Origin: an uncultured Gemmatimonadaceae bacterium
Lineage (GTDB): Bacteria > Gemmatimonadota > Gemmatimonadetes > Gemmatimonadales > Gemmatimonadaceae
Direction of reading: 5' to 3'
Assembly (NCBI GenBank): GCA_963740355.1
Contig: CAVUDW010000003.1
Coordinates: forward strand, 2,048,001 to 2,112,000
Length of the DNA stretch: 64,000 nt
A model generated the notes under the pieces. The model made no database searches, was not told where the DNA came from, and saw nothing but the letters and a program-made list of their open reading frames with translations. Shown here piece after piece: positions 1 through 13,889 of the stretch. The position numbers were made by a program, and so were the translations under genes. Every line of letters starts with the position of its first letter. The stretch's first letter is position 1.

Positions 1-1
1 A

Positions 2-3000
2 ATTCCGGAGCTGCGCACCGCAGCCAACGACGCGCAACGGCTGGCCACCTTGCTGGCCGAGCAACACAGCTACGATGTCACCACGCTGATCGACGCCGAT
101 GCCTCACGGGCACGCCTGACGGAATTGCTGACGAAGGAGCTGCCCGCGCGCGTCGGTGTCGACGACCGCGTGCTCTTCTACTTCGCCGGCCATGGTGTGG
201 CGCGCGACAGTGACGAAGGCCCGAACGGCTACCTGCTTCCAGCGGACGCGCGACGCGGTGACGAGTCCACGTACCTCAACATGCCGCTGGTGCACGACGC
301 GCTGCTTGGACTCAGCTGCCGCCACATGCTGGTCGTGCTCGACTCCTGCTTTTCCGGCGCATTCCGGTGGTCGGGCACACGCGACGCCGAGGAAGTGGTG
401 GAGGTGGTGCATCAGGAGAAGTATGACCGGTTCGTGAAGGACCCCGCCTGGCAGGTGATCACCTCCGCCTCGCAAGACCAAAAGGCCATCGACCAACTCT
501 CGGCAGGCGCACTCGGGAGCCGTGATGGCGATGGCGCACATTCCCCATTCGCGCTCGCCCTGTTCGATGGATTGAGCGGCAAGGGCGATGTCATTCCGCG
601 CGAGGGTGGCGACGGGTTGGTGACGGCCACCGAGCTCTATCTCTATCTCGACGAGACACTGCAGAGCGCGGCACTGGCCGCAGGCAAGACGCAGACGCCA
701 CGACTGTGGCCGCTGAAGAAGCACGACAAGGGCGAGTTCGTCTTCTTCGTTCCAGGCCGCGATCTCTCGCTGCCCCCGGCGCCACCGCTCACCTTCGACA
801 ACAATCCGTGGCGCGGCCTCGCATCGCACGACGCCACCAATGCGACGCTGTTCTTTGGGCGTGATGCAGAAACGGAAGCGCTGCGAAAGAAGGTCGAAGC
901 CAATCCACTGACCGTGGTGCTGGGTGCATCCGGCACAGGAAAGTCTTCGCTGGTGAAGGCCGGCGTCGTCCCTCGCCTCACGGCCGGCGGCTGGCTGGTG
1001 TTGCCGATTGTGCGCCCGGGGTCAACACCGCTGATCGCGCTTGCACAGGCACTGTCGGTTGACGGTCAGGGCTCGGCCGGCGCCGCCACTCCGGAGAGCG
1101 TCACTGCCGTGATGCAGCGACTCCTCGATGCACAGGGCGACAAGAAAGTCGTGCTGGTGATCGATCAGTTCGAGGAACTGATCACCCTCGTGCCCTCCGG
1201 CGCCGAGCGCGATCGCACGCTGGCGCTGCTCGCCAGTCTCGCCGATGCGCACGCCGATCGCTTGCGCATCGTCGTCACGATCCGCACCGACTTCGAGCCC
1301 AATTTCGACCGCTCCGCCTTCGGCGATCGGTGGCGAGAGGGCCGCTACAACGTGCCACCGATGTCGCGGCAGAATCTCCGCGACGTGATCGAGAAGCCGG
1401 CCGCCGCGCGAGTGTTGTACTTCGACCCATCCAGCCTCGTGGACACGCTGCTGGACGAGGTGGTGACGACGCCGGGCGCGTTGCCACTGCTCTCCTTTGC
1501 GTTGAGCGAGATGTACATCGCCTACGTAAAGCGCCAGAGCAGCGATCGTGCCATCACACGCGCCGACTACGATGGCCTTGGTGGAGTCGCTGGCGCACTT
1601 CGCTCGCGCGCCGAATCCGAGTACGCCGCGCTCGACGCGGCACATCGCGCCACGCTGCGTCGCGTCATGCTGCGCCTGGTGACCGGTGAAGGTGGTGGCC
1701 TCGCACGGCGGCGAGTGATGGATGCCGAACTCGATTTTGCCGACATGGACGAACATGCCCGCGCCGCCAACGTGGTGCAGCGCCTCACCGCCGCACGACT
1801 GCTCGTCGAAGGGAAGGAACCGGATGGCGAGGCATTCGTCGAACCGGCGCACGATGCACTGGTCCGTGGCTGGGGACGCCTGATGGAATGGGTGCGCGAA
1901 GAGAACGAAGCGAAATTCGCGCTCTCGCAGCAGCAACGGCTCACGCGATCGGCCACCGAATGGGAGCGAGCCGACGCCACCTCGAAATCCGGCCTGTTGT
2001 GGAGCGACTCGTCGCGCAGCGCCCAGCTGGCGCCGCTGGTTCGGAAGAAGGCCCCGTGGCTCAATCGTCGAGAGCTGGCTTTCGCGCAGCGCAGCATCCG
2101 GGGGCGGCGGATCACGATGGCAACCGTCGCCGGCGCGCTGCTCACCATCACCGCGGCCGGAATCGTCGCCATCGTGGGCGGCCTGCGAGCCAGTGCACGA
2201 GCCGAGCAGGTTCGCATCGGGGCAATCGTCCGCACGGCCACCTCGATGGTGACCGAGGATCCGATGATCGCCGGCCTGCTGCTCGGCAGCATCGACAGCG
2301 CCGCCGTCGAGAAGGCTGATGCCGCCACCCGTCTCGCGATGCTCGGCGCCGCACTCGAGCTGCGTCGCGGGCCTCGCGTCCTGGCCACCTTCAACGCCGA
2401 CGATGAAGTCGTCGCGGCGCGGATCAGCCCCGATGGCCGATCGGTGGCGACCGCCGTGATCGACAATGAAGTGCGGATCTGGCGCGCCGATGGCACCGGG
2501 TCACCGCTGGTGCTGCGGCAGCCGAACATGCCGGTGACGGCGATCGAGTTTTCGCCGAGCAGTGATCGTCTGGCCGTCGGCGATGCAAACGGCGCGATCC
2601 GCATCTGGCCACGAACCGGCCCCGGCGCTCCAGTCACGCTGCCGGGCGATGCGACGCCCGTCTTGCGGATGCAGTTCAGCCGAGACGGCAGACGCCTGCT
2701 GGTGACGTACGATGTCGGTGCGGCGAAGATCTGGACGACCGACGGCTCGGGCTCGCCAACCGAGATCCAGTCGAAGAAGATCAAGTACCTCGTCGCCGGC
2801 GTGTCGCCTGAGACCGGCAAGGACATGCTCACCCCAGCGTTCGTGGGCGTGGACGAGGCGCTGTTCGCCGATGGCGATCGACAGGTCGTGACGATCATGC
2901 GCGACAGCAGCGTGCAATTCTGGCCCAGCGTCGGTGTGGCCGAGCCGACGCGCACGGTACGACTGCCGCGACGCGAGGAACCGACGCGGATCGCGGTCAG

Positions 3001-4684
3001 CCCGGACGGCAAACGCGTCGCCGTCGGCGGTCGGAACGCGCAACTCTTCGTGCTCGATCTGGGCGTCAAGTCGCGCAGCCTGCGGCTCTCCGGCGCCACC
3101 GGCGACATCGCGGCGCTCGGCTGGAGCCCCGACGGCGCGATGTTGGTGAGTACTGCCACCGACACCGGCATGCTGGTGTGGAATACGACCTCGGGCGAAC
3201 GCATCCGCCGATTCCGGCACAACGGCGAGGCGATGCAATCGGCCGATTTCAGCCCGGACGGTCGCTCGATCATCACGACCTCGCCGTATTCGTTTCAGGC
3301 TACCATCTGGTCGCTCGACAGCGCGGTCGTCGCGCTCCCAGGCCAGACGAACGAGCTGGTGGCGGCAGACTTCGCCCCTGATTCGCGTCGCGTCCTCACG
3401 GCCGCGAAAGACGGCAGCGTGCGGCTCTGGTCGCTACCAGACCCACCCATCTACTCCGAACGCGGTGGCATCGAAAGCGAACATCCCGAAGGAGGCAACA
3501 TCGCGGCGGTGGCATTCTCGCCGGACGAAAGAACGATCGCGATGAGTACGCTGGACGGTCTTATGTATCAAAAGCGGCTTGATAGTGTCTCGATGAAGCG
3601 TATGATCGACTCTGCGCCAGGGACGCTGCGGACGCTGGCATTTTCGCCTGATGGACGCCGCCTGCGCGGTCTCCTGTACGACGGAACGCGGCGACTCTGG
3701 ACGCTCGGCACAATCCCGTCCCGTGCGGACGTCCCGACGAGCTCGACCGCATTTGCGATCACCACGGAGTTCGCCGCCGACGGTCGGCACGCACTCTCCA
3801 TCACCGATCAGGGCAGCGCGCTGGTGTGGGATGTCGACACGAAATCACCGCCGATGACGCTGCAGCTTCTCCCCGCCGATTCCATCTGCGCCGGTCAGGA
3901 CGGCGACGACGATTGCGCCGATCCGTTGGATAGCTGCGCCGCGCTGTCGCGCGATGGTCAGTTCGCGGCGGCATGCCTGCGCGCGGGTCCGGCCGCGATC
4001 TACCGCGTGCCGACGACGACGCCATTCCGCACGATCACGACACCCCGATCGAGCCGGTCCACAGCCGTGGCATTCAATTCCGACGCCAGCCGGATCGCGG
4101 TCGGCTACGGCAACGGCAGCATTCGGCTCTTCACGGTCGCCGGCGCAGATACCGGCCGCCTGATCGCAGGACATCGGCAGGCGGTAAAGCTGCTCGACTT
4201 CTCCCCCGATGGTCAGCGACTGCTCTCGGCCGCCAAGGACGGCACGGTCCGCGTCTGGGACACCGCGACGGGCACCTCGCTCGTCACCATCCGACCCAAA
4301 GGCCTGGTGATTCAGGTCGCGAAGTTCACGCGCGACGGGACACGCATCGTCACGCTCGGCGCCGGCGAAGTGGATGGTCGGCTGTGGAACGCTGATGGGT
4401 CGGGCGGCTTCGTCTCGATGCCGGCCGGGCGAGGCGAAGTCCGCGAGCTGTATCCCAGCGCCAGTGGCAGATGGCTGCTGGCCACCAGTGCCGAGCAGAC
4501 CGCCCAGCTCTATCCACTCGATCCGAATGATGCGATCGCCGCATTTCGAAATGCCCGCACCTGCATGACAGTGGCCGAACGCCAGCGGTACCTCACCGAG
4601 TCCGCGCCAGACGCGACAACCCGATATCGAGCGTGCGAGACAAGTCGACGTGGTACTGATACGACGACAACGCCTGCGCGATGA
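2..4684 (+). CDS. Caspase-like (peptidase C14) + nSTAND1-type P-loop NTPase + transmembrane helix + WD40 repeat protein; 5' end lies outside the window
   Basis: Frame is open from base 2 (IPELRTAANDAQRLATLL, typical C14 N-terminal helix). Catalytic FYFAGHG and LDSCFSG; NPWRGL pre-ATPase motif; Walker A GASGTGKSS; Walker B VLVIDQFEE; PGALPLLSFAL and HDALVRGWGRL winged-helix motifs; hydrophobic helix near 2111-2185; many FSPDG...VRxW WD40 blades. Confidence 0.93.
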   Translation: MPELRTAANDAQRLATLLAEQHSYDVTTLIDADASRARLTELLTKELPARVGVDDRVLFYFAGHGVARDSDEGPNGYLLPADARRGDESTYLNMPLVHDALLGLSCRHMLVVLDSCFSGAFRWSGTRDAEEVVEVVHQEKYDRFVKDPAWQVITSASQDQKAIDQLSAGALGSRDGDGAHSPFALALFDGLSGKGDVIPREGGDGLVTATELYLYLDETLQSAALAAGKTQTPRLWPLKKHDKGEFVFFVPGRDLSLPPAPPLTFDNNPWRGLASHDATNATLFFGRDAETEALRKKVEANPLTVVLGASGTGKSSLVKAGVVPRLTAGGWLVLPIVRPGSTPLIALAQALSVDGQGSAGAATPESVTAVMQRLLDAQGDKKVVLVIDQFEELITLVPSGAERDRTLALLASLADAHADRLRIVVTIRTDFEPNFDRSAFGDRWREGRYNVPPMSRQNLRDVIEKPAAARVLYFDPSSLVDTLLDEVVTTPGALPLLSFALSEMYIAYVKRQSSDRAITRADYDGLGGVAGALRSRAESEYAALDAAHRATLRRVMLRLVTGEGGGLARRRVMDAELDFADMDEHARAANVVQRLTAARLLVEGKEPDGEAFVEPAHDALVRGWGRLMEWVREENEAKFALSQQQRLTRSATEWERADATSKSGLLWSDSSRSAQLAPLVRKKAPWLNRRELAFAQRSIRGRRITMATVAGALLTITAAGIVAIVGGLRASARAEQVRIGAIVRTATSMVTEDPMIAGLLLGSIDSAAVEKADAATRLAMLGAALELRRGPRVLATFNADDEVVAARISPDGRSVATAVIDNEVRIWRADGTGSPLVLRQPNMPVTAIEFSPSSDRLAVGDANGAIRIWPRTGPGAPVTLPGDATPVLRMQFSRDGRRLLVTYDVGAAKIWTTDGSGSPTEIQSKKIKYLVAGVSPETGKDMLTPAFVGVDEALFADGDRQVVTIMRDSSVQFWPSVGVAEPTRTVRLPRREEPTRIAVSPDGKRVAVGGRNAQLFVLDLGVKSRSLRLSGATGDIAALGWSPDGAMLVSTATDTGMLVWNTTSGERIRRFRHNGEAMQSADFSPDGRSIITTSPYSFQATIWSLDSAVVALPGQTNELVAADFAPDSRRVLTAAKDGSVRLWSLPDPPIYSERGGIESEHPEGGNIAAVAFSPDERTIAMSTLDGLMYQKRLDSVSMKRMIDSAPGTLRTLAFSPDGRRLRGLLYDGTRRLWTLGTIPSRADVPTSSTAFAITTEFAADGRHALSITDQGSALVWDVDTKSPPMTLQLLPADSICAGQDGDDDCADPLDSCAALSRDGQFAAACLRAGPAAIYRVPTTTPFRTITTPRSSRSTAVAFNSDASRIAVGYGNGSIRLFTVAGADTGRLIAGHRQAVKLLDFSPDGQRLLSAAKDGTVRVWDTATGTSLVTIRPKGLVIQVAKFTRDGTRIVTLGAGEVDGRLWNADGSGGFVSMPAGRGEVRELYPSASGRWLLATSAEQTAQLYPLDPNDAIAAFRNARTCMTVAERQRYLTESAPDATTRYRACETSRRGTDTTTTPAR

Positions 4685-4747
4685 GCCGGTCGAAGCAAAT
4701 GCCTGCTGCTCTGGTTCGCGCTACATCCGCGCCGTATCCTTGAGCCT

Positions 4748-7669
4748 GTGACCACGCCCAACCTCCCTGGTGATCCGAAGCCGGTGAACGGGCCGCCTCT
4801 CTCCGGCGTGATCGCCAACCGCTACCGGATCGAACGGCAGATCGGCGAGGGCGGGATGGCGACGGTCTACCTCGCCCACGACCTCACACGCGGGGTATCG
4901 GTCGCACTGAAGGCGCCCAAGGCCGAGTTGGTGATGCAGCTCGGCGCGGCACGCTTTGCGCGCGAAATCCAGATCTCGACCAAGCTGCAGCACCCGCACA
5001 TCGTCCCCGTGCTGGACGCTGGTTTCGCCTCGGAGTCGGTGCCGTTCTACGTCATGCCGTTCATCGACGGCGAGACGCTCGAGCAGAAGCTGGAGCGAAC
5101 CGGCGCCCTCCCCATCGACGAAGCGATCACCATCGCCACCGAAGTGCTGGACGGGCTGATCTACGCGCACAAGCAAGGCTTCGTGCACCGCGACGTAAAG
5201 CCATCGAATGTTCTGATCGCAAACGGGCATGCGATGTTGGCTGACTTCGGCATCGCGCGCGCCGTCGAGACGACCGACAACCGCAAGCTGACCGAGTCGG
5301 GCTTTGCGCTCGGCACCGCCGAGTACATGAGTCCCGAGCAGGCGGCCGGCGATGCGCAGCTCGACGGTCGCAGCGATCAGTACAGCCTCGGTTGCGTGCT
5401 CTATGAAATGCTGGTCGGCGGACCACCGTTCAGCGCGCCGACGGCACGCGCCGTGATGGCTCGGCACTTCGTGGATCCCGTGCCGAGCATTCGCACGGTG
5501 CGCGACACCGTGCCGGAGAAGCTCGAGCAGGCGGTGATGACTGCCCTGTCGAAGATTCCGGTCGATCGATTCGCGGACGCCGCAGCCTTCAAGGCAGCGC
5601 TGAAGGACCCGACGCTGCGCGACGCGACGGCGGCGAGACCGACCACCGCGGCACTGGCAAGGCGCAAGCGAACACGCGTCGTGGGTGGCGTACTCGCGGC
5701 GGTAGCCGTGATCGCGGCACTCACTCTCTGGCGTATGGGTGGAAGTGCCAGTGCGGTGCTCGATCCGAATCGGGTCATGGTCTACCCGTTCGTGACGCCT
5801 GCCGGCTACAGCGGTGCACAAGCGGTGGGCGAAGACGTTGCCACCATCATCGGCAACGCACTCGATGCGGCCGAGCCATTGCGTTGGGTGGACGGGTGGT
5901 CGATGCTCGCCGCGAAGGATCGCGAGAATATCCGGCTGCTCGAAGCGGATGACGCGCGCCGGCTGGCACGTGAGAAACGCTGCGCCACGTTCATCACCGG
6001 GAGGCTCGTGCCGAGCGGTGATTCCGTGAAGGTGTACCTCACGCTGAATGATGTCAGCGGTGACTCGGTACTGGCGCAGGGCGAAGCCACCGGCAGCGCA
6101 AAGGACCCATGGCGCCAGGGCCTTCGCGCCATGAGCGGCATCCTGCCGAAGCTGATCCCGGGCGGCACCAGAGACGTTTCGGCGGACTGGAAGGATCGCA
6201 GCCCTGGTGCGGTCGCCAGCTTCCTCCTTGGCGAAGCAGCATTCCGTCGCGTGCAGATGACGGATGCGCTGACGCGCTTCCGCAAGGCAATCGAGCTCGA
6301 TTCGACCTTTGCGCTGGCGGCGTTGCGTGGCGCACAGGCGGCATCCTGGAATCACCGGAGCGCTGAAGCTGCGTCGATGGTGTCTGTTGCACTCACGCAG
6401 CCGTTACCACCACGCTATCACCAGCTTGCGGTCGGAATCGCGGCGTATCTCGCCGGGCACGCCGATTCTGCGATCGTTCACCTGCATGCAGCGACAGCGG
6501 CCGATCCGGATATGACCGTCGCCTGGATGCAGCTGGGTGAGGTGTACACACACCTGCTGCCGTTGGCTGGCAATACCGACTCACTGGCAGACCTCGCATT
6601 TTCGCGGGCACGGATGCTCGACACCAATGCGGCGAGCGCACTGCTGCATCCGATCGAGATACGCCTTCGTCGCGCCGACACGGTCGCGGCGCAGGCGCTT
6701 CTGGCACGCTTCCGCGCCGCAAACCCTGATGCGCCCCTTCTTGCGCCGCTCACGATCGCCGAGACCTGCGTGACCAAGGGCGCGACGGCGGTAGACTGGA
6801 ACGGCGAGGCCGCGCGGCAACCGCTCTACCTTCTCGCAGCATCGAAGACACTCGCCGGTGGTGGCGCGCAGCTCGAGTGCGCGGTCGCAGGCTTCCGCGC
6901 GATTCTGGCCATCGATACGGCGGCGACGGATGAAGCCGATGCCCGGCGATTCGCCGCCATGCTCGGCCTGCAGGCAATTCACCTCGCCCGTGGTCAGCCG
7001 GCGTTGGCATCTGCCACCATCGATGCATTCGTCGCCCGCTGGGGTGCAGGGTCATCGCTGTTCCTGCTCGATGGAGCATTCGAGCCCGCGCTGCTCGCTC
7101 GGGCTAGCGCGGTCGCCGCATCGGATGCCGCGACGTACGGTGTGAACTACACCAACTTGCCGTACGCGCGGCGACTCTGGGAGTTGGGGATACTCGAGAT
7201 GCGGACGGGCAGCGTGGACGTGGCCGCAGCGGCCGCCGCAGAACTTCGCCGCCGCGGTGCCGACCCCGACTCCAGCTATGCGCTCGCACGCGCAATGTCG
7301 CTCGAGGCGTTCGTCCAGCTCGCGCGCAGCACCACGAGAGCCGATTCAGCGAATGCCGAGCAGCGTTTCGTCGCGCTGCTCGAGCGCGGCCCGGACGGGG
7401 AGTCCTATCAGTGGGATGAGGCCGCACCGATGGCGGCAGAACGACTCACGCTGGCACGGTTGCTCCAGGCCCGAGGTGCGTACGAGCAGGCAATCGGTGT
7501 CGCCGAAGTGTTCGACTCGCGTTGGCCGCTGGTCTACGTGCAATTCCTGCCAGCCAGTCTCGAACTGCGGGCGGCGGCAGCGAAGTCGCTTGGCAATTCC
7601 GCGCGCGAGTCGCATTATCTAACTCGCCTCGCTGCACTGCGAAGTCAGGTGAAGGCTACCGGAGGCTGA
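4748..7669 (+). CDS. Membrane-anchored Hanks-type Ser/Thr protein kinase with TPR-like helical C-terminal region
   Basis: GEGGMATVY, VALK, HRDVKPSN, DFG and GTAEYMSPEQ motifs; TM segment VVGGVLAAVAVIAALTLW after RRKRTR; TPR-like FRKAIELDSTFALA. GTG start approximate. Confidence 0.93.
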   Translation: MTTPNLPGDPKPVNGPPLSGVIANRYRIERQIGEGGMATVYLAHDLTRGVSVALKAPKAELVMQLGAARFAREIQISTKLQHPHIVPVLDAGFASESVPFYVMPFIDGETLEQKLERTGALPIDEAITIATEVLDGLIYAHKQGFVHRDVKPSNVLIANGHAMLADFGIARAVETTDNRKLTESGFALGTAEYMSPEQAAGDAQLDGRSDQYSLGCVLYEMLVGGPPFSAPTARAVMARHFVDPVPSIRTVRDTVPEKLEQAVMTALSKIPVDRFADAAAFKAALKDPTLRDATAARPTTAALARRKRTRVVGGVLAAVAVIAALTLWRMGGSASAVLDPNRVMVYPFVTPAGYSGAQAVGEDVATIIGNALDAAEPLRWVDGWSMLAAKDRENIRLLEADDARRLAREKRCATFITGRLVPSGDSVKVYLTLNDVSGDSVLAQGEATGSAKDPWRQGLRAMSGILPKLIPGGTRDVSADWKDRSPGAVASFLLGEAAFRRVQMTDALTRFRKAIELDSTFALAALRGAQAASWNHRSAEAASMVSVALTQPLPPRYHQLAVGIAAYLAGHADSAIVHLHAATAADPDMTVAWMQLGEVYTHLLPLAGNTDSLADLAFSRARMLDTNAASALLHPIEIRLRRADTVAAQALLARFRAANPDAPLLAPLTIAETCVTKGATAVDWNGEAARQPLYLLAASKTLAGGGAQLECAVAGFRAILAIDTAATDEADARRFAAMLGLQAIHLARGQPALASATIDAFVARWGAGSSLFLLDGAFEPALLARASAVAASDAATYGVNYTNLPYARRLWELGILEMRTGSVDVAAAAAAELRRRGADPDSSYALARAMSLEAFVQLARSTTRADSANAEQRFVALLERGPDGESYQWDEAAPMAAERLTLARLLQARGAYEQAIGVAEVFDSRWPLVYVQFLPASLELRAAAAKSLGNSARESHYLTRLAALRSQVKATGG

Positions 7670-7697
7670 GCCTCCATTCCCGTCCGAGGGTAGTTCG

Positions 7698-8027
7698 ATG
7701 ACCAAAGGTCGCGAAGGTGATGTCGTTGCGCCGACATCGAGTAAGGGTCGTGATGGCGACATCGTGGCGCCGGTCTCAGGCAAGGGACGCGAGGGAGACA
7801 TCGTCGCGCCGGTCTCAGGCAAGGGTCGCGAGGGAGACATCGTCGCGCCGGTGTCAGGCAAGGGTCGCGAAGGAGACATTGTCGCACCGGTCTCGGGCAA
7901 GGGTCGCGAAGGGGACATCGTCGCGCCGGTCTCAGGCAAGGGACGCGAAGGCGACATCGTCGCACCGGTCTCGGGCAAGGGTCGCTCCGGTGGGGAACCG
8001 GTGAAGAAGGACCCGCGCGACCGATAG
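7698..8027 (+). CDS. 109-aa tandem-repeat peptide, 7 x 13-aa KGR(E/D)GD(I/V)VAP(V/T)S(G/S) plus an eighth KGR
   Basis: ATG preceded by GAGGG; 28 bp after the kinase stop and 31 bp before the next caspase start, same strand. Units 3-7 are identical in protein and differ in DNA only at synonymous third positions. Confidence 0.8.
   Translation: MTKGREGDVVAPTSSKGRDGDIVAPVSGKGREGDIVAPVSGKGREGDIVAPVSGKGREGDIVAPVSGKGREGDIVAPVSGKGREGDIVAPVSGKGRSGGEPVKKDPRDR
7704..7985 (+). repeat. 39-bp coding tandem repeat, 7 full units plus a partial unit
   Basis: Units start at 7704, 7743, 7782, 7821, 7860, 7899 and 7938, partial at 7977; consensus AAGGGTCGCGARGGNGACATCGTCGCRCCGGTCTCRGGC. Confidence 0.97.
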
Positions 8028-8058
8028 GTCCCCCACGATTTCACAACACAGCACAACC

Positions 8059-9636
8059 ATGACGATGCCCGAGTCTTCTGTCGACGGCGTCCGCCGCGCC
8101 GTGGTCATTGGCGTCGACAACTACACCAAGAAGCCGCTCGACGGGTGCGTTGCCGACGCGACGATGATGGCCGAGGTACTGCAGCAGCGGTTCGCGTTCG
8201 ACAAGGCGAATATCTCGCTCCTGCTGAACGATGCCGCGCGCCGCGATGCCGTGCTTGCGGAGCTCGACCAGCTCGTCGATCTCACCACGGCGAACGATGT
8301 CGCGTTCATCTTTTACGCCGGCCATGGTTCACAGTCGGTGAATAGCGACAACACCGAATCGAGTGGCTACGACAGCACCTTCAACGTCTGCGACAATCCG
8401 CGCGAGGACATTCTCGACGACGAGATCGCGGCGCGCCTCGCTGCCCTCGGCGAGAAGTCGCCCTGGACGGTGATGATCGTTGACGCCTGCAATTCAGGCA
8501 CGCTCACCCGCAGCGCAGACGCCGGGCCGAAAGAACGCTGGACGCCGCCGGTCGACCGCACAGCCCTGCCGGCCGCTGCGCAGCAGGCGCTCACGACGCG
8601 AAGTCCCGTCGCTGCAACACCGGAGTCGTACGTTCTCCTGACGGCCTGCCGTGATGGCGAGATCGCGCAGGAGACGGTCATCCCCGGCGACCAGACCATC
8701 CACCACGGGGCGTTCACGTTTGCACTCGTTCACGAGTTGCAGCGCGCAATCGGTGGCGACACCTGGCGCGACGTATTCGATCGGGTGTCACGGGCGGTCA
8801 GCACAGTGCACAAGGAGCAGCACCCGCAGATCGATGGCAATCTCGATCGCGAAATCTTCGGCCTCCGGCAACTGCCACCGATGCCGTTCGTGGCCATCAC
8901 TGATCGCGCCAGTACCTCCGCCGTGCTCGCCGCCGGCTCGCTGCACGGTGTCAGCATCGGCAGCGTGTACACGATCTACGCCGATGGGACCAAGGATGTC
9001 ACCGGCGCAGCGTCGCTTGGCACGGTCGAAGTGACACTGGTGAAGGGCACCACGTCTCGTGCACGCGTCGTCTCTGAGACGGCACCTGGTGCGATCGTGA
9101 TCGGCTCACGCGCTGTACAATCACAACGCCGAACAGTCGACGATGCGCTTGCGCTCACCAATACCGATCCGAAGAGCCGCATGCAGGGTGCCGTCACCCT
9201 CGAGATCCTTCGTCGTGACGTCGACGGTGCGTGGGCCGTCGCCATGGACGACGTGTCGTTCGGCATGCCCGTCTTCGACTCCGGCGATCGCATCGCATTT
9301 CGCATGACGAACACACTCGATGAGCCAGTGTTCGTGAACCTCTTTGACTTCGACCCGACGGGTACGGTGTCAGTCAAGACGAAAGGCTGGGCGAATCAGC
9401 TGAAGGCAAAGGGGGTGTTCGAGATCGGTACGGACACCCGCAAGATCTCGATGCGCTGGGATGCGGATGACGCGGTGGAGTCGTTCAAGCTGTTTGCATC
9501 CGTCGCGCAGGTGGACCTCTCCTGGCTCCTGCAGCTCGACCAGCCGGGGCGCGGCACTGAGGAGGTGTCATCGCTTGCGGTCGACGACTGGTGCTCGCAC
9601 GTGAAGTCAATCCGCATCCGTCGGAAACTCGCATGA
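8059..9636 (+). CDS. Caspase-like protease (peptidase C14, meta/orthocaspase type) with C-terminal Ig-like (DUF4384-like) domain
   Basis: RRAVVIGVDNY..LDGCVADA, FYAGHGS (His), VDACNSG (Cys), LLTACRDGEIAQE, HGAFTFAL, QHPQIDG; C-terminal GDRIAFRMTN...VFVNLFDFDPTG...ESFKLFAS. Confidence 0.92.
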   Translation: MTMPESSVDGVRRAVVIGVDNYTKKPLDGCVADATMMAEVLQQRFAFDKANISLLLNDAARRDAVLAELDQLVDLTTANDVAFIFYAGHGSQSVNSDNTESSGYDSTFNVCDNPREDILDDEIAARLAALGEKSPWTVMIVDACNSGTLTRSADAGPKERWTPPVDRTALPAAAQQALTTRSPVAATPESYVLLTACRDGEIAQETVIPGDQTIHHGAFTFALVHELQRAIGGDTWRDVFDRVSRAVSTVHKEQHPQIDGNLDREIFGLRQLPPMPFVAITDRASTSAVLAAGSLHGVSIGSVYTIYADGTKDVTGAASLGTVEVTLVKGTTSRARVVSETAPGAIVIGSRAVQSQRRTVDDALALTNTDPKSRMQGAVTLEILRRDVDGAWAVAMDDVSFGMPVFDSGDRIAFRMTNTLDEPVFVNLFDFDPTGTVSVKTKGWANQLKAKGVFEIGTDTRKISMRWDADDAVESFKLFASVAQVDLSWLLQLDQPGRGTEEVSSLAVDDWCSHVKSIRIRRKLA

Positions 9637-11555
9637 CACCCCGGGTCTACGCCCTCCTGGTGGGCATCAACGACTACGTCGCCGTGCCCAAGCTGCATGG
9701 CTGCGTCGCGGACATCTCGGCCGTGGAAGCACTGCTGTCCTCACGCATCCCGAAGGACGCGCTCGACATGCAGGTCTTGCATGACGACAATGCGACCCGC
9801 GCCGGCATCATCGACGGATTCCGGACTCACCTGCGAAAGGCCGCGGCGGACGACATCGCGGTGTTCTACTTCTGTGGCCACGGATCGCAGGAGAATTGCC
9901 CGCCGGAGTGGCTCCCGCTCGAGCCAACGAGCAAGAACCAGACGATCGTGCCGGTGGACGCCCGAACCGGCGACGTGTTCGACATCGCGGACAAGGAGTT
10001 GAGTGCGCTGATCCACGAAGTGGCAGCAGGTGGTGCACAGGTGGTGACGATCTTCGACTCGTGTCACTCCGGTGGCGTGACACGTGATATCGACGACACG
10101 ACGCTCGGGCATGAGAGCCCCGTGCGCATGACTGCCGCCAGCACCGGGCGGACGCGAACACTCGCCGACTATCTCGATCTCGCACGCACCCTGTACGACC
10201 CGACGCGCATCGCCGCCGAGGGGCCACCCGATCCCAGTCATATCGCGATCTCGGCCTGTCAGTACGACCAGACGGCGAAGGAATTCCCGATACAGCCACC
10301 GCGCCGCGGTGCGTTCACGCAGGCGTTCGAAGAGGCAGCGAGTTCGCTCGGCCCGTCTGCGAGCTACATCGATCTCGTCACAGCGGTCCGCACGAGAGTG
10401 CGTGATCGCGCCACGGACCAGATGCCGAGCCTCTCAGTGATTGGCAAGGCCGACGGTGCCTCGATCTTCATGGCAGGGCATGTCGGGCGGCGGGACCTCA
10501 CCTTGGACATCGATTCGACCGGAGCATGGTGGTTGTCGTCGGGATCGATCACCGGTATTCCGCCAACTGAAAGCGGCAACGTCACCTCCGTCGCCATTTT
10601 CCCGCGAGGCGCCTTCGACTCGCCTGCCGCGACACCTGCGCCGATTGCGACAGCGACCATCGATCTCGTCACCGCCGATCGTGCACGTTTGAAGTTGGGC
10701 AGCAATTCAGCACCGCTTGATGCCGCACAGCAGTACCTCGGTACAATTTCTGGTATGGGTACGCCGCCCCTCAATGTCGTCGTTACTGGGGCGGTGGCCG
10801 AGCAGACTGCGGCAGTCACGACGGTCCTGGCCGGGCGCAGTGGGCTGTTCGCCGTGAATGCGACGGCGACATCGAGCTTGCCGACGGTCACCGTTCGTGT
10901 CGATGCGACAACAGCCACGATCCACGACGCCGATGGCGCGCCATTGCCGAACCAGCAGTTCACGCTCGAAGCCGCGGGGCTGCAGTCGCTCGCCAACGCC
11001 TGTGATCATCTCGCGAAGTGGTACGGCACGCGCGATCGCACGCCGATCGCATCGACGCTCAACGGCAGGGTGACGATCGACGTCGTGCCCGTCGCGCCCG
11101 GTGAGACGACGGTTCCTCCTGATCGCGCTGCTGTCGCTCCCACCAATGGCACGGTCGTGCTGCGCTACACGGGTGACCAGCCGCCGGTGGTGCAGTTCCG
11201 GCTCAAGAACACGTCGGGAGTGCGGTTGTATGTCGCACTCCTCGACCTCACCGATTCGTATGGATGCTCGGTGAAGTTCAGCGATTGGATTCCCGCCGGC
11301 GGCACGGCGCTCGCCGGTGGCGGCAAGACGTACAAGATGAGCTTTGCCGCGTGGCGGGATCCGTCGTTCACGGTCACGACCGACATCATGAAGCTCTTCG
11401 CCGCCACCAGTGATTTCAGCACGACGCAGCTCGTGCTCGAATCGCTGTTGAAGCCGAAGGTGGTGGGCGGGACGCGGGAAGCGGTGGAGGAGGAAGAGGA
11501 GCCGGACACGTCCTTTTGGGGGACGACGGCGGTTGTCGTGGAGACGCGGCGGTAG
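9633..11555 (+). CDS. Caspase-like protease (peptidase C14) with C-terminal Ig-like (DUF4384-like) domain
   Basis: ATG overlaps the upstream stop (ATGA at 9633-9636); YALLVGINDY..LHGCVAD, FYFCGHGS, FDSCHSGG, ISACQYDQTAKE, RGAFTQA; C-terminal FRLKNTS..LYVALLDL...DIMKLFAAT. Confidence 0.92.
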   Translation: MTPRVYALLVGINDYVAVPKLHGCVADISAVEALLSSRIPKDALDMQVLHDDNATRAGIIDGFRTHLRKAAADDIAVFYFCGHGSQENCPPEWLPLEPTSKNQTIVPVDARTGDVFDIADKELSALIHEVAAGGAQVVTIFDSCHSGGVTRDIDDTTLGHESPVRMTAASTGRTRTLADYLDLARTLYDPTRIAAEGPPDPSHIAISACQYDQTAKEFPIQPPRRGAFTQAFEEAASSLGPSASYIDLVTAVRTRVRDRATDQMPSLSVIGKADGASIFMAGHVGRRDLTLDIDSTGAWWLSSGSITGIPPTESGNVTSVAIFPRGAFDSPAATPAPIATATIDLVTADRARLKLGSNSAPLDAAQQYLGTISGMGTPPLNVVVTGAVAEQTAAVTTVLAGRSGLFAVNATATSSLPTVTVRVDATTATIHDADGAPLPNQQFTLEAAGLQSLANACDHLAKWYGTRDRTPIASTLNGRVTIDVVPVAPGETTVPPDRAAVAPTNGTVVLRYTGDQPPVVQFRLKNTSGVRLYVALLDLTDSYGCSVKFSDWIPAGGTALAGGGKTYKMSFAAWRDPSFTVTTDIMKLFAATSDFSTTQLVLESLLKPKVVGGTREAVEEEEEPDTSFWGTTAVVVETRR

Positions 11556-11568
11556 GGCGGGCGCAGAA

Positions 11569-13587
11569 TCAGCGTGGTCTTTCGACTAACTGTGGTTGCG
11601 CGCGACCTGCTGCCTGCAGACCGTTGCCGAGTGCGCCGAAGACGTTGGAGCCCCAGCACCAGGCCTTGCCGCTCGCGCTGAAGGCGCAGGCGTGGCGAAA
11701 GCCGACGCTGATCGACGTAAAGTTACCTGCTGGTTGATTTGGGATCAGCTTCGGTGCGAACTCGACTCCGAGCGCGTCGCTTCCGCTCTGCCGCCATTGG
11801 TTGCTGCCCCAGCAGTACGCCGCACCCGAGGATTCCAGTGCGCATGTGTGTGAGGAGACGGCGTCTCCGCCTGCTACCACGTACGCGAGTGGCGACGAGG
11901 AAGCAACAGTAGTTGGCGTCGTGACGAATCCGACGTTCGAGTTGATGCCAAGCTGGCCACTTGAATTGTCGCCCCAGCACTGCGCCACACCGTTCGCTCG
12001 AAGTCCACATGTATGCTTATAGCCTGCACTGACCGACACATACGGGCCGCCCAAAACTGTGTCCGTCAATGCGTCAGTGCTCTGCAACGTACCGAGTCCG
12101 AGTTGCCCACGGTCATTGGCGCCCCAACAGAAAGTCCGTCCCGCTACCGTGACGGCACATGTGTGAAATCCGCCGGCGGCGATCGATCGAAATGTTGTAT
12201 CCGGATAGATCGGAATGGGAGTCGTCGAGTTCACACGGCGCGCGTCGCCGAGCTGCCCTGTCGAGTCACGCCCCCAACAGAACGCCTTGCCTGCCGCCGT
12301 CAACGCGCACGCATGGTTGGCACCCGCAGAGATCGAGTCGAAACGTTCGCTGCGCACGGTCACGAGGCGCGGCGTAGTGCCGCCACCCGGCGACGAACCG
12401 TTGCCGATCTGGCCGTACGTGTCCGATCCCCAGCAATAGGTCGAACGATCGGTCGTGATTCCGCACGCGAAGTTGCCGCCGAGCGAAATTGTCTTGAAAG
12501 AGAGTGTATTCGTCGAGTCGTGCTTCGGTGAAAGTGAGCAGGCGAAGCGAACGGGTGAGGGGGCTTCGAAGGAATCGAAACAGAGGCTATCCCCAGCAGT
12601 CGCAAGCTGCCCGAGATCTCCCTTGCCCCAGCAATAGAGACGTCCGGTGACCGTCGTTCCGCAGGAGAAGTCGCCCCCTGCTCGGACCGTGACCAGGTCG
12701 CGTTCGAGCACCGTGAGCGTGATCGAGGCGGTCCGGAATCCAGAGGCCGCCGAGATCGTAACAGCGCCCGCACTCCGGGTAATCACGCGTCCCGATGTAT
12801 CGACAGTCGCAACCGTGTTGTCCGAGGTCGTCCAGACGAACTTCCGCCCCGCGACTGCACGATCGTCGTACCCGCGTGCCGTCGCCTTGACGATCACCGT
12901 ATCCGAGGCGAGGACCTGCGTCACGGGCGTGGTCAAGGCGATGTCCTTGATCACCGGAAGGACGGTGACAGTCCCGGAGCCGGCCGCGGAAATTGCCGAC
13001 GCGGTCAGGCCCGCAACGCCTGGCGCCACCGCGTGGACAGTGCCGGTCGAATCGACGGTCGCCACGGTTGGGGCGAGCGAGGTCCAGACGAAGCGTGTCC
13101 CGGCAACTGCCTTCGCACTGTCGTCGAAAGCCGTCGCCACGAATCGAAGGGAGTCCGCACGGACGATCGGGTCATCCACGATGATCGTGTCGCTCCGCGG
13201 CGTGACGGTGACCCGTTGTGCGGCGCGAGCGATCACAATCGTGGCGTATCCCTTCACGCGCGCACTGGCCGCAATGCGCACCGTGCCGAGATTGACCGGC
13301 CGGACCACACCCGCCTCGTTGACCACCGCGACCGAGGAGTCCTCGGTGAGCCAGATCACCCGCCCGCCGGTGATCGTCTGGAAGTCGGTGCCGACGATGC
13401 GTGCTGACAGCTGCCGCTGGTCGGTCGGGCGCAATGTGTCCGCCACGAAGATCGTATCCACTTCCGGCGTCACGTCGACGCGCAGAACGCTGGAGCCGGT
13501 CAGGCCTGGATCAATCGGGCCAGTATCCGCATCACAACCTGCAAGTGTCAGCGCGAGGCCGAGGGAGAGGAGAGCGCCGCGAGTCAT
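11569..13587 (-). CDS. Lipoprotein with Ig-like (Big_2) domains and an RCC1-repeat beta-propeller
   Basis: Lipobox LAGC after a hydrophobic leader (MTRGALLSLGLALTLAGC); WTSxxxxVATVDxxG Ig repeats; repeated ISAGxxHxCxxxxxGxxxCWGxNxxGQLG. Confidence 0.9.
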   Translation of the reverse strand: MTRGALLSLGLALTLAGCDADTGPIDPGLTGSSVLRVDVTPEVDTIFVADTLRPTDQRQLSARIVGTDFQTITGGRVIWLTEDSSVAVVNEAGVVRPVNLGTVRIAASARVKGYATIVIARAAQRVTVTPRSDTIIVDDPIVRADSLRFVATAFDDSAKAVAGTRFVWTSLAPTVATVDSTGTVHAVAPGVAGLTASAISAAGSGTVTVLPVIKDIALTTPVTQVLASDTVIVKATARGYDDRAVAGRKFVWTTSDNTVATVDTSGRVITRSAGAVTISAASGFRTASITLTVLERDLVTVRAGGDFSCGTTVTGRLYCWGKGDLGQLATAGDSLCFDSFEAPSPVRFACSLSPKHDSTNTLSFKTISLGGNFACGITTDRSTYCWGSDTYGQIGNGSSPGGGTTPRLVTVRSERFDSISAGANHACALTAAGKAFCWGRDSTGQLGDARRVNSTTPIPIYPDTTFRSIAAGGFHTCAVTVAGRTFCWGANDRGQLGLGTLQSTDALTDTVLGGPYVSVSAGYKHTCGLRANGVAQCWGDNSSGQLGINSNVGFVTTPTTVASSSPLAYVVAGGDAVSSHTCALESSGAAYCWGSNQWRQSGSDALGVEFAPKLIPNQPAGNFTSISVGFRHACAFSASGKAWCWGSNVFGALGNGLQAAGRAQPQLVERPR

Positions 13588-13889
13588 CGATTTTCCGAGG
13601 GGAGAGTCCGTTCCGATCAGCTGAGCTGAGCCGACGCAAAGGTTCGATACGAGTCGAAGCCTTTGCACGGATCAGACCGGAACGCCGATCGGCGCGGCAC
13701 GTCCACCCCCTCCTCTACAGCGACGCTGCTTTGAGCGCCACACTGTCCGCGGCTCGTCTCGGATTGTGGCAGCTTCGCTACGAAAGTGCAGCGCACTCAA
13801 AGGATGGCTGCATCCCTACTAGGAATATTCTGCTAATATATCAAAACATCGTGCGTGACATATCACGCCGGAATCCTCTGCGAGGCCCG

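Follow-up and report, generated by a model that had tools for sequence, protein, structure and literature searches.

Do five closely packed genes for a membrane receptor with a built-in caspase domain, a transmembrane kinase, a repeat peptide and two soluble caspase-like proteases form one signalling system, or do separate systems lie side by side? The question is raised by one end of a 64,000-nucleotide stretch of DNA from an uncultured, soil-type Gemmatimonadaceae bacterium (assembly GCA_963740355.1, contig CAVUDW010000003.1, positions 2,048,001 to 2,112,000 of the forward strand), here called the window, in which these genes, termed g1 to g5, follow each other on the same strand. The answer that we favour, with about even confidence, is that the locus is a composite of two separable but associated modules of the kind represented by conflict systems and membrane orthocaspases. 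Module A would consist of the membrane STAND receptor g1 and the soluble protease g5, Module B of the kinase g2, the peptide g3 and the caspase g4. The set likely functions in cell-death or defence signalling.

Distribution and linkage of the five genes

Module A emerges from a survey of one genome per species with a pattern derived from g5, by which a g4-like clade outside Gemmatimonadota could be missed. The survey gave 80 loci of the g5 family, spanning Gemmatimonadota, Cyanobacteriota, Chloroflexota, Actinomycetota, Planctomycetota, Acidobacteriota and others. At 22 of these 80 loci, a gene for a caspase-nSTAND1 protein lies in the fetched flank (about 10 kb) of the g5-family gene, namely at 17 of 29 loci from Cyanobacteriota, 2 of 13 from Chloroflexota, 1 of 3 from Planctomycetota, 1 of 15 from Gemmatimonadota and 1 of 13 labelled as Actinomycetota. 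Direct adjacency of g1-type and g5-type genes, with the domains confirmed, is found at L048, L060 and L073, and the two types are neighbours in varied arrangements in the window and at L016, L029 and L041. Both types are united in the metagenomic protein P0061 (3279 residues), whose single chain comprises a g1-type caspase, nSTAND1, a g5-type caspase with its middle region, DUF7379 and WD40. In a maximum-likelihood tree of 71 proteins (quick IQ-TREE run, LG+G4, one short row dropped), the 16 kinase-linked g4 proteins form one clade, and g5 falls inside a large clade with all 17 STAND-adjacent proteins; each clade has a value of 100 in the Shimodaira-Hasegawa-like approximate likelihood ratio test. 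Because flank linkage, fusion protein and tree agree, g5 is likely the cognate soluble metacaspase-like partner of g1, and g4 likely goes with the kinase. By sequence relationship, g4 represents a Gemmatimonadota-specific clade that is linked to kinase and peptide, and g5 a widespread cross-phylum clade. The first-pass annotation of this DNA had the receptor caspase activate two soluble caspases; the g1-g5 link at the 22 loci and in the fusion agrees with one half of this scheme, but g4 and g5 belong to separate clades and are not equivalent.

Within the genus, 10 of 19 congeners have a full-length g5 orthologue (51-60% identity), and orthologues of the g2 ectodomain and likewise of g4 are found in the same 10; genome G007 has a g2 paralogue at 37% identity. 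Orthologues of g1 (69-73% identity over the first 733 residues) are present in 9 of the 10 congeners that have g5 and in none of the 9 that lack it, and a search of 21 relatives from other genera gave no orthologue of g1 or g5, with one match at 30%. The genes thus recur together in other genomes, as would be expected of the system proposed in the first pass, but they do not form the single fixed operon that was envisaged there. The order g2-g3-g4-g5 is held wherever contigs permit (G012, G009, G006, G015), but g1 adjoins the other genes only in the window, in G015 (L016) and at the public locus L029, and in six congeners lies on separate contigs. At L013 (G012), L014 (G009), L015 (G006) and L033, where the upstream DNA is readable, no g1-type caspase-nSTAND1 gene precedes g2. 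In G012 and G006, the esterase gene (89% and 84% identity) directly adjoins g2, which indicates that g1 is an insertion/deletion variant at this site. In congener G001, a g2 copy of 56-58% identity (G001:C271:2020-3797) carries in-frame TGA and TAG stops, and a search of this genome yielded neither a g1 nor a g5 orthologue; a decay of the whole set is therefore possible there.

The trio of Module B recurs in two families of the order Gemmatimonadales, and its g4 often bears DUF7379. Outside the genus, 25 loci with g2-type kinases were examined. At all seven loci of another family whose kinase ectodomain is at least 43% identical, a small open reading frame (ORF) with GR repeats follows the kinase gene, and at the 18 loci with more distant kinases neither a GR repeat nor a caspase was found. 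After the GR-repeat ORF, four of the seven loci encode a g4-like caspase with DUF7379, one a TPR/TIR/caspase set, and two have ORFs without an informative match. In case of the TIR-bearing locus (L112, 3740..11251; G167:C3), kinase and GR-repeat peptide are followed by proteins of 568 residues (TPR), 546 residues (C-terminal TIR) and 444 residues (caspase), so that the same kinase-peptide pair here precedes a different set of effectors in place of g4. At L113 and L121, the ORFs that come after the pair lack homology with one another, and Pfam gives no informative match for either. Small ORFs of other kinds also occur next to g2-type kinases. At L139 (G294:C172), a 66-residue ORF with five copies of DPIGPGGPPA and without Arg lies just downstream of a distant kinase (1482..3341, 32% ectodomain identity). 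At L115, L116 and L128, the g3 position is taken by non-repeat Gly/Pro-rich small ORFs; that of L116 is a related Pro-rich one, and those of L115 and L128 terminate in a sequence resembling GTPPPPPK.

The gene products and their surroundings

The composition proposed in the first pass, i.e. three C14 domains with the His/Cys dyad, an nSTAND1-TM-WD40 receptor (TM, transmembrane), a transmembrane kinase and a repeat peptide, is confirmed by Pfam, motifs, hydropathy and Tandem Repeats Finder (TRF). The features are collected in Table 1.

Table 1. Genes g1 to g5 and their domains, in window coordinates
Feature	Position	Strand	Description	Basis
g1 ORF	2..4684, 5' open in window	+	caspase-nSTAND1-TM-WD40 receptor	ORF list, Pfam
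g1 Peptidase_C14 domain	1..586	+	metacaspase-like	Pfam 59.8 bits on full N-terminus; AGHG and LDSCFSG motifs
g1 nSTAND1 NTPase	806..1978	+		PF20703 E 7.4e-100; Walker A GASGTGKS, Walker B VLVIDQFEE
g1 TM helix	2111..2167	+	predicted, single	hydropathy, mean Kyte-Doolittle 1.94 over 19 residues
g1 WD40 region	2402..4519	+	beta-propeller	Pfam WD40/propeller matches, residues 801-1506
g2	4748..7669	+	Hanks-type Ser/Thr kinase with TM helix and ectodomain	
g2 kinase domain	4823..5476	+		Pfam Pkinase PF00069, 157.6 bits, E 5.2e-46
g2 TM helix	5672..5728	+		hydropathy, residues 309-327
g2 ectodomain	5765..7666	+	CadC/TolB-N-like plus TPR	predicted structure, ESM Atlas TPR clusters (0.97)
g3	7698..8027	+	109-residue repeat protein	TRF, translation
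g4	8059..9636	+	metacaspase-like protease	
g4 caspase domain	about 8092..8853	+	C-terminal DUF4384-like region after it	Pfam Peptidase_C14 97.4 bits, E 1.3e-27
g5	9633..11555 (ORF 9591/9633..11555)	+	metacaspase-like protease	
g5 metacaspase-like domain	9633..10484	+		Pfam Peptidase_C14 87.0 bits, E 2e-24
g5 post-caspase domains	beta-sandwich at 11040..11552	+	small beta domain, alpha/beta domain, beta-sandwich	predicted structure

The receptor g1 belongs to the known nSTAND1 class, as it has a PF20703 match (335.7 bits, cut-off 27.1), Walker A and B motifs, an N-terminal effector and a C-terminal repeat sensor with many WD40/beta-propeller matches. Its hydrophobic segment (residues 704-722 of the window protein P0001) lies between the enzymatic part and the repeats, and the predicted topology is that of a single membrane pass with the WD40 region outside and nSTAND1 and protease in the cytoplasm. 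In the caspase domain, g1 shares 48-56% identity with g1-like genes from cyanobacteria, Chloroflexota and Planctomycetota. Compared with the L029 orthologue, identity is 85% in the caspase domain, 79% in nSTAND1 and 58% in the WD40 region, which by this sequence comparison is the fastest-evolving part of the protein.

All three proteases exceed the gathering cut-off of Peptidase_C14 (Pfam PF00656, 21.4 bits). Their catalytic motifs are AGHG...DSC in g1, AGHG...DAC in g4 and CGHG...DSC in g5, and the His/Cys dyad is invariant in the family alignments A1 (H83, C144) and A3 (H89, C144). No hydrophobic segments are present in g4 or g5. The fold comparison covers g5 alone among the three: its model (predicted local distance difference test, pLDDT, 86.1; predicted template modelling score 0.80), with the metacaspase-like domain at residues 1-284, matches AtMC9 best (8a53; Z 26.9, root-mean-square deviation 3.3, 256 residues aligned), then GSU0716 (3bij; Z 25.5), and next MALT1, Yca1 and TbMCA2, so that its nearest neighbours in fold are Arg/Lys-specific metacaspases and MALT1; a Foldseek comparison gave E 3.4e-14. 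The three small domains behind the caspase part, with the beta-sandwich at residues 470-640, have weak fold matches only (Z 7.5-7.9). The DUF4384 profile, which the first-pass annotation had suggested to run, does not reach its cut-off in either soluble protease, as g4 scores 18.9 bits (PF14326, cut-off 27 bits) and g5 gives no match; the nearest ESM Atlas cluster of the g5 C-terminus is labelled 'DUF4384 domain-containing' (score 0.92, family on 17% of members).

With regard to substrate preference, g1, g4 and g5 share two Asp residues, one at the second position ahead of the catalytic Cys and the other in a C/T-x-x-D motif. These align by motif, not by superposition, with Asp211 and Asp95 of TbMCA2, whose catalytic Cys is C213 according to the title of structure 4afr and for which Asp95 and Asp211 have been proposed to form the S1 pocket (PMC4357240). 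Orthocaspases are reported to cut after basic residues (PMC6426788), and from the metacaspase fold of g5 and the Asp positions it looks as if all three proteases are Arg/Lys-specific.

When the last 364 residues of g5 were searched against 1.84 billion proteins, 227 representative clusters matched, and the 20 matches that were scanned contain Peptidase_C14 in 18 cases and a C-terminal DUF7379 alpha/beta-hydrolase, with sub-matches to PGAP1, LCAT and lipase-like families, in 12. In congeners it is often g4 that carries a DUF7379 extension of about 487 residues (L013, L016), which is absent from the g4 proteins of the window, L015, L017 and L029. The first-pass statement that there is no obvious death effector therefore holds for the window, but not for relatives, in which DUF7379 is found on many g4 proteins and TIR at one locus. 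Across other Gemmatimonadota loci, identity to the G012 extension ranges from 46 to 90%. The source genome of the window has a lone DUF7379 gene 1.8 Mb away from the locus (L108, 7745..9292), which was considered as a relocated g4 tail and rejected: with 36% identity to the G012 extension the hydrolase is a paralogue, and it stands beside its own CHAT/TCAD7 gene. This pair (L108, 5471..9292; G000:C3:227471-231292) encodes a 751-residue CHAT protein with a weak TCAD7 match and then a 515-residue DUF7362-DUF7379 alpha/beta-hydrolase, and it is an example of the caspase/alpha-beta-hydrolase pairing known from ternary conflict systems.

The kinase motifs VALK, HRD (HRDVKPSN), DFG and SPE are all present in the translation of g2. 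The model of its ectodomain (pLDDT 83.8) has an alpha/beta domain and helices, followed by a TPR solenoid. It resembles TolB-N (Z 13.2) and, with a Z of 16.5 over 282 aligned residues, the periplasmic domain of CadC, and the solenoid matches APC6 (Z 18.5) and PEX5 (Z 17.8), although such Z values are only moderately informative for helical repeats; peptide-binding TPR domains of Sti1 are matched as well.

The peptide g3 consists of seven units of 13 residues (GKGREGDIVAPVS) and a basic tail; its repeat array extends over 7703..7985, and TRF counts 7.3 copies of a 39-bp unit. Five identical units vary at 7 nucleotide sites, all of them third codon positions, and the pairwise differences among these units amount to 39 synonymous and 0 non-synonymous ones. 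As all differences are synonymous, the frame must be regarded as translated and constrained as a peptide. There is neither a signal peptide nor a hydrophobic segment, and g3 is taken to be a small cytoplasmic protein of Gly-Arg-(Glu/Gly)-Gly...Pro units. The Pfam scan of g3 gave nothing credible, and in a word-based search of 5.8 billion protein clusters none of 8000 scored candidates reached E <= 0.001, and relatives were detected solely via position, tblastn and TRF. At 19 other loci, a homologue of this positional kind is encoded behind the kinase gene. The resulting family of 20 peptides has species-specific units of 8 to 14 residues; all 20 hold at least four GR/KR dipeptides, and Arg and Pro occur in every unit that can be delimited. 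Ser or Thr is found in the units of 13 of the 18 scorable peptides and is absent from those of the other 5. G015 has further tandem repeats, with units of 27 and 45 bp and up to 7.9 copies, about 2.7 kb downstream of g5 (L016, 473..841, equal to L084, 14577..14943).

The close spacing of the five co-directional genes, noted in the first pass, is confirmed from the ORF list: the gaps g1/g2, g2/g3 and g3/g4 are 63, 28 and 31 bp, and g4 and g5 overlap by ATGA, with the g5 ATG at 9633 and the g4 TGA at 9634-9636. The suspicion that more genes of the operon may lie upstream of base 1 turned out to be unfounded. According to the assembly itself, the ATG of g1 lies only 67 nt before the first base of the window, for a product of 1583 residues, and 115 bp further upstream there is a divergent, esterase-like gene. 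Downstream, a convergent RCC1/Big_2 gene (11569..13668, minus strand) ends the unit. The divergent gene on one side and the convergent gene on the other delimit a unit of exactly five genes. Promoter-like sites are more frequent than expected (4 found, 1.0 expected) and one of them, at 7590-7618, lies directly before g3, which is not decisive; terminator-like sites are at chance level (7 found, 5.5 expected). The RCC1/Big_2 protein has 699 residues with seven RCC1 repeats and two Big_2 domains, and the stop of its gene is 13 bp from that of g5. Further out, upstream of the window (L002, 4324..9191, minus strand), a transglutaminase-like/DUF2126 protein (1111 residues) and a circularly permuted ATP-grasp protein (488 residues) are encoded.

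Proposed working and its alternatives

How could two such modules work together? An envelope or extracellular cue would be sensed by the WD40 ectodomain of g1 and the TPR ectodomain of g2. Oligomerisation of nSTAND1 would then activate the g1 protease by proximity, and this protease may process or activate soluble Arg/Lys-specific proteases, with g5 as the probable target or partner. The peptide g3 offers one Arg site per unit, and as these sites are regularly spaced, it would be the likeliest substrate or pseudosubstrate of Module B, i.e. a multi-site protein that may act as buffer, as inhibitor or as released signal. The kinase g2 would tune the protease system. The output would be limited proteolysis, to which DUF7379 or TIR might add an attack on membrane lipids or NAD+ in relatives; in the source genome, with a window g4 that has no DUF7379, proteolysis would be the sole remaining output. 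The end result would be a regulated stop of growth or death of the cell, for which defence or kin conflict is the most plausible setting. One can go a step further and regard kinase and Arg/Pro repeat protein as a constant pair that gates interchangeable effectors, such as caspase-lipase, twin caspases or TPR/TIR/caspase. In such a constellation, g3 would be a genetically encoded array of identical Arg cleavage sites that either restrains the metacaspase-like proteases as a stoichiometric pseudosubstrate buffer or is cut to peptides of 8-14 residues, until a signal that comes from outside the cell through kinase or STAND receptor overrides it. We consider this extension improbable, but if it is true, the pair would set a threshold in a manner that has no described counterpart among bacterial caspase systems.

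Several observations weigh against the two-module interpretation. As an alternative, two or three independent systems may simply lie side by side, with g1 as a self-contained STAND-caspase sensor and effector, and g2-g3-g4, possibly with g5, as a separate kinase-protease module without cross-activation. The orthologues of g1 in G004, G006, G009, G010, G012 and G013 lie on other contigs, at loci without a g2, g4 or g5 match, and g1 is solitary at the six loci L021-L026, with unrelated neighbours such as Penicillinase_R and DUF2200. At 58 of the 80 g5-family loci, some of them on short contigs, there is no caspase-nSTAND1 gene in the flank. In four of five genomes of the other family that were checked (95-98% complete), the trio exists without a g1 orthologue, so that cross-talk between the modules cannot be obligatory, and in the fifth (G149) the g1 orthologue is solitary. 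The direct contact of esterase gene and g2 in G012 and G006, by which g1 appears as an insertion/deletion variant, points in the same direction, and single proteins that combine effector, STAND and repeat sensor are reported as the norm for the class (PMC10907252, PMC8195603). Full independence does not account well, however, for the presence of g1 in nearly all congeners with g5 and in none of those without it, although the co-occurrence is suggestive rather than a statistical proof, as the genomes are related and do not represent independent events. It also leaves aside the repeated neighbourhood of g1-type and g5-type genes in several arrangements, including the 17 cyanobacterial loci, and the fusion of both types in P0061. 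For these reasons we regard independent systems as unlikely.

A role other than conflict or death would be another explanation: the genes may belong to an envelope-signal pathway for development, stress or surface remodelling, in which proteolysis and phosphorylation serve normal physiology. The surroundings fit this idea, because the site is chromosomal and syntenic, the neighbouring genes are ordinary ones (esterase, RND pump) without a defence island, and the esterase is 84-89% identical in congeners. The g2 ectodomain resembles the periplasmic sensor CadC and TPR scaffolds, ectodomains of this type were found in 48 of the 301 genomes sampled across the phylum (47 of 300 excluding G088), most of the examined loci lack a caspase, and non-death roles of metacaspases are described in the literature. 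Two further points weigh against our own interpretation: an alpha/beta-hydrolase is absent from g4 and g5 of the window, which makes the effector step in the source genome less clear, and a comparison with PADLOC-DB v2 gave no complete named system, only the generic 'caspase' model (PDLC02987) and kinase-domain matches to PD-T4-6 and mad6 without partner components. The first pass had allowed for a match to an already named system; the matches remain at this generic domain level. A physiological pathway would, on the other hand, hardly be expected to be spread over only 10 of 19 congeners, with g5 orthologues in 0 of 21 genomes of other genera, nor to have g2, g4 and g5 diverge to 53-70% identity in G012 and G006, where the esterase retains 84-89%. 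The sensor parts evolve fastest, the effectors are swapped among loci (DUF7379, second caspase, TIR), and G001 apparently has a decayed copy. Patchiness, fast evolution, effector swapping and decay are described as typical of accessory conflict systems (PMC7159879), and a purely physiological role appears quite unlikely to us.

The most serious alternative concerns g3 alone, which may primarily be a partner of the kinase instead of a protease substrate, i.e. a phospho-acceptor, a proline-rich scaffold, or a ligand of TPR or WD40 domains. The position of its gene suggests this, as a g3-type gene always directly follows the kinase gene, at a distance of only 28 bp in the window, and does so at all seven loci with close kinases of the other family, including the two without a recognisable caspase, which is a further point against our interpretation. 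The other small Gly/Pro-rich ORFs behind more distant kinases (L115, L116, L128, L139), the Ser or Thr in the units of most scorable peptides, and the similarity of the g2 ectodomain model to the peptide-binding TPR domains of PEX5 and Sti1 likewise agree with a kinase partner. What all units share, however, is Arg and Pro, whereas Ser/Thr is absent from the units of 5 of 18 scorable peptides, and the GR(E/G)G repeat form was seen only in that subgroup of kinases which mostly have caspase genes at their loci. Moreover, g3 has no feature for export or membrane insertion, whereas the TPR and WD40 domains are predicted to be outside the membrane. A kinase-partner role of g3 is thus possible, though somewhat unlikely; the interpretation of g3 as a substrate or pseudosubstrate within a two-module locus appears preferable.

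Comparison with known systems

To which known systems does such a locus belong? The closest class are the nSTAND1 conflict systems (PMC8195603, PMC7159879). Like their receptors, g1 combines an N-terminal effector, nSTAND1 and C-terminal superstructure-forming repeats, and there is also agreement in the spread over cyanobacteria, Chloroflexota, actinobacteria and planctomycetes and, in relatives, in the pairing of caspase and alpha/beta-hydrolase. For VMAP systems, caspase domains are reported to be always accompanied by a neighbouring alpha/beta-hydrolase gene (PMC7159879). The cluster differs in lacking an FGS/CLec, EAD adaptor, MoxR-vWA or EACC1 component: the five proteins contain no FGS/CLec or EAD families at Pfam E <= 0.01, neither the five genes nor their immediate flanks encode MoxR AAA+ or vWA domains, and for EACC1 (PF19953) the source genome gave no match, but control genomes gave none either, and only 115 bp are available upstream of g1. 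The EACC1-associated caspase type (NCBIfam NF047832, cut-off 140 bits) is not indicated by the scores of g1 (61.3 bits), g4 (52.5 bits) and g5 (36.6 bits). Conversely, kinase and repeat-peptide genes or a caspase-middle-DUF7379 partner of a STAND protein are not mentioned in the available parts of these papers, and in the available supplement of PMC7159879 Gemmatimonas appears only in the species list.

The first-pass suggestion of an undescribed system thus stands in part. The trio of kinase, repeat peptide and caspase has no prior description among the literature matches listed, although the architecture tables of PMC7159879 might list related proteins, and no paper was found by the name DUF7379. 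The trio, its TIR version, the pairing of g1-type genes with the caspase-middle-DUF7379 clade and the fusion P0061 therefore appear to be undescribed in the searched literature, whereas the general class and, as an in-silico hypothesis, the cascade logic have already been published (PMC7475262, PMC8195603, PMC7159879). Caspase-STAND proteins of bacteria are widely catalogued, but their mode of signalling is almost wholly unexplained, and the locus provides a partner clade for the caspase-nSTAND1-WD40 receptors, a candidate substrate or regulator in g3, and an input through a kinase. Should the proposed working of the trio be right, it would reveal how bacteria restrain and then release a metacaspase, and a logic of constant sensor and swappable effector would reach the Gemmatimonadota, a phylum that has hardly been surveyed for conflict systems.

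In the Apaf-1 apoptosome, a STAND-WD40 sensor feeds a cascade from caspase-9 to caspase-3. The similarity lies in the coupling of a STAND ATPase and WD40 sensor to a caspase-fold protease, possibly with initiator and executioner tiers. In case of g1, however, the protease is fused to the STAND protein and the sensor is predicted to be outside the membrane; the apoptosome caspases are Asp-specific, whereas the proteases of this locus are metacaspase-like with a probable basic P1 preference, and no CARD or death-fold adaptors were detected in the cluster. A nearer parallel for g3 is the orthocaspase MaOC1 of Microcystis, which cleaves a small antitoxin encoded by a neighbouring gene of a ParE/ParD pair (PMC7935541). 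There, an Arg/Lys-directed caspase homologue cuts a small protein from an adjacent gene at basic stretches and thereby releases an activity, and this may serve as a precedent for g3 as a putative protease substrate. In contrast to the antitoxin, g3 is a pure tandem repeat, no toxin partner is found in the window, and a kinase gene belongs to the set.

The transmembrane orthocaspases of cyanobacteria, with the architecture p20-(NACHT/AAA)-TM-WD40, have the same topology as is predicted for g1 (PMC7475262). For these proteins, a hypothetical cascade has been proposed, in which a membrane orthocaspase with its WD40 region outside activates cytosolic orthocaspases, and which, in the available parts of that paper, is not tied to gene neighbourhoods. 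The locus described here would fit into this scheme and adds three elements to it: a g5-type partner clade that is set by gene adjacency and fusion, a host from the Gemmatimonadota, and the associated trio of kinase, repeat peptide and caspase.

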